From Octopus sinensis (lineage: Eukaryota), in NCBI RefSeq assembly GCF_006345805.1, contig NW_021830023.1:1-5447 (forward strand): a stretch of DNA of 5,447 nt, in the 5' to 3' direction. Shown here piece by piece: positions 1,363 through 3,057 of this stretch. The notes under the pieces are model-generated. The model saw only the letters and a list, made by a program, of their open reading frames with translations. It had not been told where the DNA came from and ran no database searches. Both the position numbers and the translations under genes were made by a program. The number at the start of each line of letters is the position of its first letter. The first letter of the stretch is position 1.

Positions 1363-1666
1363 AGTGAATGTTGTTAAACTCCGTTATTTTATCCAACCTA
1401 AATGTTTCATGCGACTGATTGGAATGTCACGAGCACGCACAACTGTACAGAAACGGACCAAGAAGGTGCCGTTCAGGTTTATCAGAGCAACTCGATATTT
1501 TATATCACTTACTACTAATGAGGGATACAAAATTGTATCGTTTTCTGTTTTTTTTTGTTTTTGTTTATTTCACTATCGATTAAAATTACTGTTAGTAATA
1601 ACATTTTCTAAACAAACTTTAGAAGCGTCGAATCTTGTTTTGTATTTTACAGACAAGAAAGTAATG

Positions 1667-1745
1667 TTCGGAACGCAGTATAGCCATGGAAACAGTAGAA
1701 ATAACCAATCTTTCTGTTGTTTTCATGGCTATGCTGCGTTTGGAA
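1667..1745 (+). ncRNA. Candidate miRNA-precursor-like hairpin
   Basis: 1671-1701 pairs continuously with 1711-1741 (31 bp: 26 Watson-Crick and 5 G-U) around a 9-nt loop UAACCAAUC. After one G.G mismatch there are 3 more bp (1667-1669/1743-1745). The wobbles pair only on the + strand. The inverted repeat is certain; miRNA identity is inference. Confidence 0.55.
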
Positions 1746-1903
1746 AGTTTAAGATCCAGACAGAGTTCTTCATTGTTGGAGATGAATCGGTTATATTTCC
1801 ATCCTATTCATAGTAGTAATCCGTAACCTAGTCCTAAGGTCATCTGCTATTCGTTGTCCGTGTAACATTGATATTCCTCCCTGTGTTTGTGAAATCTTTT
1901 ATC

Positions 1904-1965
1904 CCTTCCAGAATGCTTCATTTCCACGCATGCCAGCTTAATTTAATTCGTCCTTAGTCGAAAGA
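1904..1965 (-). ncRNA. Degenerate minimal type I hammerhead ribozyme-like motif (probably inactive copy)
   Basis: The minus strand reads UCUUUCGA-CUAAGGA-26 nt-GAAA-UG-aag-CA-UU-CUGGAAGG. Stem III is 3 bp, and stem I is 7 bp (3 G-U) plus a proximal mismatch. The core has A in place of G5, and stem II is poor. Confidence 0.35.
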
Positions 1966-2064
1966 CACCTGTTATTATTTTTATTGCATTTGTGTAACGT
2001 CCGTTTTTTTTTTTCGTTATTGTTTTTGTATACATTCGCTACTTTCCTCCAAGTTTTTCCTTAG

Positions 2065-2137
2065 GGCTAGCCAGATAGGAGCAATCTCAAGTATAATCAG
2101 CCGAAATTGCGAAGATAATCTGGTACTTGACTGAGGA
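2065..2137 (+). ncRNA. Hammerhead ribozyme-like motif with non-canonical strand order
   Basis: AUC triplet at 2084-2086. Stem I 2087-2093/2124-2130 (7 WC bp) directly abuts CUGAGGA 2131-2137. GAAA is at 2103-2106, with stem III 2106-2110/2081-2085 (5 WC bp). A conventional stem II is missing; GGCU 2065-2068 can pair with AGCC 2099-2102. Confidence 0.5.
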
Positions 2138-2170
2138 AAGAAAACTTCGAATGACCCGTCCTAGTTTCCT

Positions 2171-2250
2171 TGTGTCGTCTACGTGGATGTTTTGTTGTCC
2201 CATTTTTGTATCACCTAACTGTCCGGTTGTTTTGCGTTCTCGTCCCATTT
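2171..2250. repeat. Imperfect tandem duplication of about 36-44 nt
   Basis: tgtgtcgtcta..ggatgttttg..ttgtcccattt is followed by tgtatcaccta..ggttgttttg..tcgtcccattt. Confidence 0.7.
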
Positions 2251-2257
2251 AATATTT

Positions 2258-2475
2258 TGTGTGTGTGTGTTTGTCTCCCCCCAAATTGCATAACAATCGA
2301 TGCTGGTGTGTTTATGTCCCCGTAACTTAGCGGTTCGGCAAAAGAGATCGATAGAATAAGTACTAGGCTTACAAAGAATAAGTTCTGAGGTCGATTTGCT
2401 TGACTGGATGCGTTGCTCCAGCATAACCGCAATCAAATTACTAAAAGAAGTAAAAGAATAAAGGAATAACAGAAT
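2258..2475 (+). mobile_element. 3' portion of a second SINE-like family with an A-rich tandem tail
   Basis: The body ggtgtgtttatgtccccgtaacttagcggttcggcaaaagaga..gatagaataagtactaggctt is recalled as a very abundant octopus SINE. It ends in (AAAAGAAT)-like tail repeats at 2442-2475, typical of retroposon 3' ends. No Pol III head is seen. Confidence 0.7.
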
Positions 2476-2544
2476 ATATTCACATGTGTACACAACGCCC
2501 AAAGTATGCTGGAACTTAATATTGGCTTCACATTTCGACAAAAT

Positions 2545-2712
2545 GCCTGCAGCTTCGAGGGAGGGTGTAAGTAAATGACATCGGACCCCATTACTTAACT
2601 GGTACCTATTTTAACGAGCCCGAAAGGATGAAAGGCAAAGTCGACCTCGGACGAAATGCCGCTAAGCATTTTGCTTGGCATGCTAACGATTCTGGCTGAT
2701 CGCTGCCTTAAT
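2545..2712 (+). mobile_element. SINE-like repeat, family A copy 3 (5'-truncated, about 30-nt internal deletion)
   Basis: Aligns to copies 1 and 2 within the window and ends in gccttaataa; the 5' boundary is approximate. Confidence 0.8.
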
Positions 2713-3057
2713 AACTCATACATAACACTGAATACTCATAGGCACAATGAGAAACACTTCGATATTTACTAAGAAATCCATACATATGTACACACATGTG
2801 TACACAGAGACCAGACCAGACCACACTCTACCATCACTACACCGCTACCAATCCACCACCATACCACACATCTTCACCCAGCCGTGGCTACTATTCCATG
2901 ATGTCGTTGCGATCTTCCTTGCGGCAAATAGACCTAAGATATAAATTGTTATTAAGCCTGCAAACTAAATGTCATTATCGTAATGTGTTTCACTCCATTT
3001 TGGATTTGTTGTATGTGTGGAGGAAGGGGAAGTTAGGGGTGGCAGGATGAGCGAGCA

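Follow-up and report, generated by a model that had tools for sequence, protein, structure and literature searches.

The window analysed here, a 5,447 nt stretch of Octopus sinensis DNA (contig NW_021830023.1), carries the strands of a hammerhead core in an unusual order, which raises the question of whether the locus encodes a ribozyme, and if so of what architecture and in what kind of element. In hammerheads, cleavage takes place after H17, with G12 and G8 as the catalytic residues. The first-pass annotation had placed the core in exact register in the non-circular order NUH-GAAA-CUGANGA, which standard descriptors would miss, and both points are borne out: every strand lies where it had been placed (Table 1), the order is as described, and an Rfam search of the window found no hammerhead match at E≤10. 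Likewise, no Rfam hammerhead reached the gathering score in loci L154, L143, and L226. The cyclic CUGANGA-GAAA-NUH order and three-way junction of hammerhead types I, II, and III are absent, and a type I reading with a downstream CGAAU...GUC was ruled out, as it has no A15.1 and no stem I. In S-G-C order, a stem III of at least 5 bp with a stem I of at least 7 bp was absent when window positions 1381-2800 were dinucleotide-shuffled to 232 Mb and appeared once in 223 Mb of shuffled loci (1 in 456 Mb overall). When an upstream stem II and a helix H, each of at least 5 bp, were also required, there were no matches in 456 Mb of dinucleotide shuffles. By the split-core descriptor, this is the sole S-G-C site in the window.

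The order had been taken to be a new topology, however it is already known as type SGC (HRIMA-1 and variants), which was found in metatranscriptomes and validated in vitro through cleavage assays and the rescue of stems (Eckert et al., 2023, PMC10085705). In type SGC, a link of about 3 nt leads from stem I to stem II, a helix joins the distal ends of these two stems, and no more than one or two bases are assumed between CUGANGA and stem II (PMC10085705). The octopus motif has the same S-G-C order, full core, 3-4 nt link between stems I and II, distal helix, and G between stem II and that helix. The S-G-C links of the window copy (3-4 nt and 13 nt) are within the 0-8 and 0-15 nt of the type-SGC descriptor. 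The difference is in stem II, the 5′ strand of which follows CUGANGA with 0-1 extra base in type SGC, whereas here it lies upstream of the cut, with helices Pa and Pb in between. Block C is therefore not intact, in that no stem II strand directly follows CUGANGA: the bases after A9 form at most one of five pairs with CAGCC in the window copy, in agreement with the annotation, and in the repeat family to which this copy belongs (family 1) they are unable to pair with the strand preceding GAAA. It is an upstream GGCUGG that pairs, with helix H directly next to it; the annotation had suggested its first four bases as a source of stem II (GGCU 2065-2068 with AGCC 2099-2102). The annotation's extra helix, CCAGAU 2071-2076 with AUCUGG 2118-2123, had been thought to compete with stem I. 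This is likely to be wrong, since the helix covaries and occupies the place of the stem I/II interaction helix of types SGC and CSG.

Because the stem II 5′ strand is upstream of the cut site and the post-A9 strand is in Pa, the S-G-C cycle is predicted to be interrupted between A9 and G10.1. The partner of the post-A9 strand lies 5′ of hairpin Pb, the 3′ end of which abuts G10.1. From 5′ to 3′, the fold consists of the Pa 5′ strand, hairpin Pb, stem II 5′ strand, helix H 5′ strand, stem III 5′ strand with UH, the cut, stem I 5′ strand, stem II 3′ strand with GAAA and the stem III 3′ strand, helix H 3′ strand, stem I 3′ strand with CUGANGA, and Pa 3′ strand. Helices Pa and Pb are predicted to close the A9-G10.1 gap, with Pa, Pb, stem II, and the core meeting as a four-way junction; stem II would stack on the A9/G12 core as usual and Pa on Pb alongside. 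The split form is the fourth cut of the cycle whose circular permutations are SGC, GCS, and CSG. Type CSG (two sequences; PMC10085705) resembles it in cyclic block order and in the short stretch that joins helix H to the substrate strand, but its cycle is opened between G and C, whereas the split form is opened inside block C. The split form may have originated through local duplication of a CSG ribozyme, the outer halves then being lost. The literature searched, which covered few subscription papers, gives no precedent for or account of a hammerhead with an opening at A9-G10.1, and the parts consulted of PMC13725137, PMC10162972, PMC3088659, and PMC8370743 describe no such variant. Three things are new and absent from the annotation: the gap between A9 and G10.1 that Pa and Pb close, the repeat family, and the connection to Naiad elements.

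Table 1. Features of the split-core locus within the window (positions are those of the window)
Feature	Position	Strand	Remarks
Family-1 subfamily D repeat copy, 5′-truncated, non-coding	1852..2258	+	3′ end fixed; (TA)n next in most other copies
Closing helix Pa, 5′ strand	2033..2048	+	CAUUCG 2033-2038, UUUC-U 2043-2048; C2047 mismatched in window copy
Hairpin Pb remnant	2049..2064	+	About 22 nt of family hairpin deleted near 2052
Stem II, 5′ strand	2065..2070	+	G10.1 = 2065; family GGCUGG, window copy A at 2069 (for G)
Helix H, 5′ strand (stem I/II interaction helix)	2071..2077	+	Window copy A at 2077, subfamily U
Block S	2081..2093	+	Stem III 5′ strand GCAAU 2081-2085, U16.1 2085, C17 2086, predicted cut 2086/2087, stem I 5′ strand UCAAGUA 2087-2093
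Block G	2097..2110	+	Stem II 3′ strand (C11.1 2102), G12-A14 (GAA) 2103-2105, stem III 3′ strand AUUGC 2106-2110
Helix H, 3′ strand	2117..2123	+	Sequence and pair counts
Stem I, 3′ strand, and core C3-A9	2124..2137	+	UACUUGA 2124-2130, core CUGAGGA 2131-2137; N7 is G here, U/A/C in other subfamilies
Closing helix Pa, 3′ strand	2138..2153	+	Begins immediately after A9

The genome contains 2481 first-look candidates for this stretch and 3686 matches (1845 + 1841) to the full S-G-C pattern, against 0 + 0 for the reversed control. The full unit of family 1 is approximately 750-780 bp and non-coding. Copies are 5′-truncated with one common 3′ end, usually abutting (TA)n, and some are in inverted pairs. 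The youngest subfamily forms head-to-tail arrays of approximately 775 bp with the 3′ end fixed at (TA)n, and the next unit often starts after the 3′ TA run, like the tail of a Penelope-like element (PLE). The window copy is damaged, with base changes at 2069 and 2077 and the deletion in Pb, no hairpin being found at 2049-2064, and its ribozyme is probably weak or dead. Pb may be dispensable: in L158 it alone has been lost, and as both tandem units lack it this copy was amplified after the loss. In L056, the whole ribozyme has been lost between short direct repeats. Elsewhere in the window, positions 1672-1740 are an inverted repeat of 69 bp, imperfect at 78% self-complementarity, which may be a small hairpin element, and 2256-2465, 2560-2710, and 7-47 are fragments of other abundant dispersed repeats, SINE-like in look, directly beyond the element.

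Family 1 shares (TA)n insertion, 5′ truncation, tandem and inverted copies, and a tail after the 3′ end with the autonomous Naiad PLEs, as described in the parts consulted of Craig et al. (2021, PMC8557442). Unlike these, it has no reverse transcriptase (RT) or endonuclease: the unit has no GIY-YIG and RT ORF, and no PLE ORF was consistently upstream in 142 motif-bearing locus strands. An autonomous parent sharing family-1 sequence was not found at 30 GIY-YIG loci or at 30 RT loci seeded from L092, in none of which a family-1 motif belonged to the element. The L092-type RTs were rejected as parent, with no descriptor matches on either strand of the 30 loci, and are not Naiads, because their endonuclease is C-terminal. 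A large AT-rich PLE family (L193-L222; 7934 first-look candidates) also has a C-terminal endonuclease; the DNA up to 1.5 kb from its RT match contains no permuted hammerhead. Animal non-LTR retrozymes are similar to family 1 in being non-coding head-to-tail repeats with one hammerhead per unit and proposed non-autonomous partners of PLEs, but in the parts consulted of Cervera & de la Pena (2020, PMC7229834) and Li et al. (2026, preprint) they are defined by and searched with type I hammerheads only. Family 1, with its unit of approximately 775-880 bp, is such a tandem repeat without a type I hammerhead.

Support for the fold comes from an alignment of 87 of 90 distinct family-1 copies; the three excluded were a duplicate and two copies altered by a large insertion and a large deletion, respectively. 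Of 4764 cells, 87.7% are paired, compared to 28-45% in slid controls. Double changes occur in 23 of 55 pairs, and none of 500 shuffles attained either figure; this shuffle ignores relatedness, therefore double changes at the level of subfamilies weigh more. There are two such events in stem I (AU 63/GC 18 and UA 50/AU 25), one in helix H (UA 61/CG 17), which is 94% paired, and one in hairpin Pb (AU 68/GC 10). Stems II and III have no subfamily-level double change among the 87 copies in this genome; their covariation comes from other families and from reads of another organism (organism B), probably from one locus, in which stem III is GCAGU/ACUGC, a U-A pair of stem II is C-G, and the first stem I pair is mismatched. 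All three stems flanking the core thus covary, and of the covariation looked to by the first-pass annotation that of stem I is seen within family 1, whereas that of stem III and GGCU/AGCC is seen only across families. The weakest helix is Pa, which is 78% paired and, in subfamilies C and D, broken in the middle. RNAfold predictions include a downstream hairpin that competes for the Pa 3′ strand, and automatic picking of Pa and Pb gave a clean abutting junction in only some of 17 representatives, failing or taking the wrong register in many; others were read by eye.

The core is complete (C3-A9, G12-A14, A15.1-U16.1, and H17). Conservation of CUGANGA, GAAA, and UH among copies, which had been proposed as a check, is evident: in 55 copies chosen by BLAST rather than by pattern, N7 varies freely (G in 39, A in 15, C in 1) and the other core bases are held in 49-55, while H17 is never G in the 87 aligned copies.

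A second family has 1496 genome matches (743 + 753), against 1 + 5 for the control. Together with minor relatives, it has the same helix order with other stem sequences, including UACGU/ACGUA or CAUGU/ACAUG in stem III, GAAGG/CCUUC or GAGCA/UGCUC in stem II, UCGCU/AGCGA, UCGCC/GGCGA, or CUGUC/GACAG in stem I, and ACCCCU/AGGGGU in Pa. In L084, L143, and L128, Pa, Pb, and stem II adjoin with 0-nt gaps. Family-2 copies beside PLEs (L104, L110, L114, L189, and L192) were considered as parts of these elements, but look like separate insertions. In L189 and L192, they adjoin decayed PLE ends, which we take from their motifs to be Neptune-like, with their own type I hammerhead and with TA targets in common. 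By eye, the GIY-YIG PLEs at L099, L100, L108, and L121 have a minimal type I hammerhead variant approximately 70 nt upstream of the (TA)n end. Its core carries U for C3 and A for G8, a compensatory pair of changes.

Naiads are said to lack canonical hammerheads, with eight families flagged 'HHR_half_core' in the parts consulted of Craig et al. (2021, PMC8557442). Half of the Naiad consensi (27 of 54) were read by eye over their 3′-terminal 350-600 nt or more; their names assume that file order matches the metadata sheet, as checked for cephalopods. The split form is clean in five of these 3′ ends (Obim, Ovul, 3_Chem, 2_Movir, and 4_Dst) and imperfect in two (Esco, with four of five stem II pairs, and Bfor, with a 2 bp stem I), from hosts that include a hydrozoan, a cubozoan, an ostracod, and octopuses. 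Type CSG is present in seven nematode and spider ends (Parc, 1/2/3_Nbra, Hcon, Hpol, and Smim). By eye, one or other form is therefore in 14 of the 27 ends, and the stretch inspected has neither in 13. Since the split or CSG form is present in them, seven of the eight half-core families are explained; 3_Dst is not. The 3′ ends of Naiad_Lpol, Naiad_Ppla, and Naiad-1/2/3_Dst, as seen in File S5 of Craig et al. (2021), have a common CCCCUGACGA word that fits no hammerhead order and may be another structured RNA. The literature searched, with few subscription papers covered, holds no account of permuted hammerheads in Naiads.

In this genome, the Naiad-end motif has 304 matches (152 + 152), compared to 1 + 0 for the control. 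The Naiad ends of this genome match published octopus Naiad ends, which points to an octopus as the probable host. Stem II has six of six pairs in six of the seven copies checked, Pa is weak with 4-5 pairs, and in L226 and L239 a decayed C-terminal end of the Naiad ORF is upstream, in sense. The octopus Naiad end has the same fold as family 1 at the same distance from the 3′ end, with different stem sequences. Because the fold is common to both and the stems are not, this Naiad is at most a candidate for the partner that mobilizes family 1.

An RT copying an RNA with a cut 5′ end should produce copies that start just after the cut. The 5′ ends were taken as the point where likeness stops in the upstream DNA of anchored copies, tandem units being counted singly. 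Anchors downstream of the cut have 5261 matches for family 1 and 2045 for family 2, and the first 100 listed on contig C1 were used in each family. In family 1, 22 of the 100 start at +1 to +14 after the predicted cut, against 2.6 expected from the flanks (p 4e-10); four start at -14 to -1 (one of which is +1 by eye), four at +15 to +40, and eight at -60 to -15. In family 2, 12 of the 100 start at +1 to +14, two of which may be one duplicated event, against 2.2 expected (p 6e-5), with three at -14 to -1, four at +15 to +40, and six at -60 to -15. The family-1 peak is at +8 to +12, not at +1, and nine of the 22 ends are at TA-like microhomologies (+8 and +10). TA-like words are also present upstream of the cut, where there is no pile-up; microhomology accounts for some of the peak, though not for the lack of one upstream. 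It is likely that the pile-up is a fossil of cleavage in vivo. Among the runs listed as carrying the sequence, none is recorded as RNA. Raw RNA from organism B yielded 17, 19, and 20 partly fitting reads in three runs, with no end pile-up and no joints, the reads being too few and from a different organism.

Based on these sequence patterns, we think there is a good probability that family 1 encodes an active split-core S-G-C hammerhead, open at A9-G10.1, that processes the RNA of the element. Multimeric transcripts would be cut to unit length, and a Penelope-like RT acting in trans would prime approximately 100 nt downstream of the core, at a fixed site, on a (TA)n target. Running off at the cut end, the RT would give short copies; continuing on uncut or circular RNA, it would give long and tandem ones.

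A less probable variant of the split-core reading, compatible with catalysis, has the same pairings in a ribozyme that is active only as a strand-swapped dimer. Helix H would stack on stem III as one long arm, and the core of another copy, such as the adjacent tandem unit, would receive the stem II 5′ strand, the stem I 3′ strand, and CUGANGA from the far end of H. The links between H and stem III are indeed short, 3 + 6 nt here and 5 + 0 nt in Naiad-2_Movir, while the two places are far apart in the crystal structure (Eckert et al., PMC10085705); young copies are tandem, and dimeric cleavage is proposed for minimal PLE hammerheads in the part consulted of PMC6765202. On the other hand, co-transcriptional cleavage was obtained with SGC and CSG constructs whose links are about as short (PMC10085705), and in some Naiad versions H or the linkers are long (Naiad_Bfor) and should span in cis. 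Given the very short links and the geometry flagged by Eckert et al., the ribozyme may fold in cis or act as a dimer.

It is unlikely that the fold is instead a binding or pausing signal for a Penelope-like RT, with no cut or a protein-dependent one, and that RT drop-off and TA microhomology produced the pile-up. The peak does lie 8-12 nt inside the cut, only one of nine Xenopus retrozyme dimers cleaved in vitro (bioRxiv 10.64898/2026.07.22.740005), and an anole PLE hammerhead cleaved only with its protein, its mutants having no effect on insertion, in the part consulted of PMC11167929. However, an RT stalled by the structure should stop where the fold begins on its 3′ side (+41 to +65) rather than at +1 to +14, the upstream TA-like words show no pile-up, and across families N7 is free and H17 is never G, as catalysis requires. 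Very improbable is an ordinary type-SGC hammerhead with stem II from the post-A9 strand and the upstream strand as a switch or decoy: family 2 and L185 can form approximately 4 bp after a bulged A (with two G-U pairs in this canonical stem II of family 2), but in seven of seven family-1 representatives no more than two non-adjacent pairs of five form, against 4-6 pairs for the upstream strand with helix H following directly.

Since the split form separates CUGANGA from stem II, against the stated assumption, the catalogue of six hammerhead permutations would be incomplete. If a helix insertion is truly tolerated at A9-G10.1, it would be a new handle for engineered switches. Type SGC is known from metatranscriptomes rather than from genomes of known organisms, whereas the split form is in an animal retroelement; non-circularly permuted hammerheads, until now a matter of a few hundred environmental RNAs, are thereby placed in animal genomes, one of which has more than 5000 full-pattern matches. 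On balance, it is probable that the split-core form, a fourth non-circular permutation open at A9-G10.1 with a four-way junction, is an ancient and active ribozyme that occurs, across at least four animal phyla, in Naiads and in the non-autonomous elements partnered with them, that this form and the CSG type of nematode and spider Naiads are the hammerhead reported as missing from Naiads, and that the cut site of the split form sets the start of many genomic copies. This offers a testable answer to the apparent lack of hammerheads in Naiads. The copy starts piled at the cut would be rare evidence on the role of PLE hammerheads in transposition, a role called unclear in the part consulted of PMC8557442.
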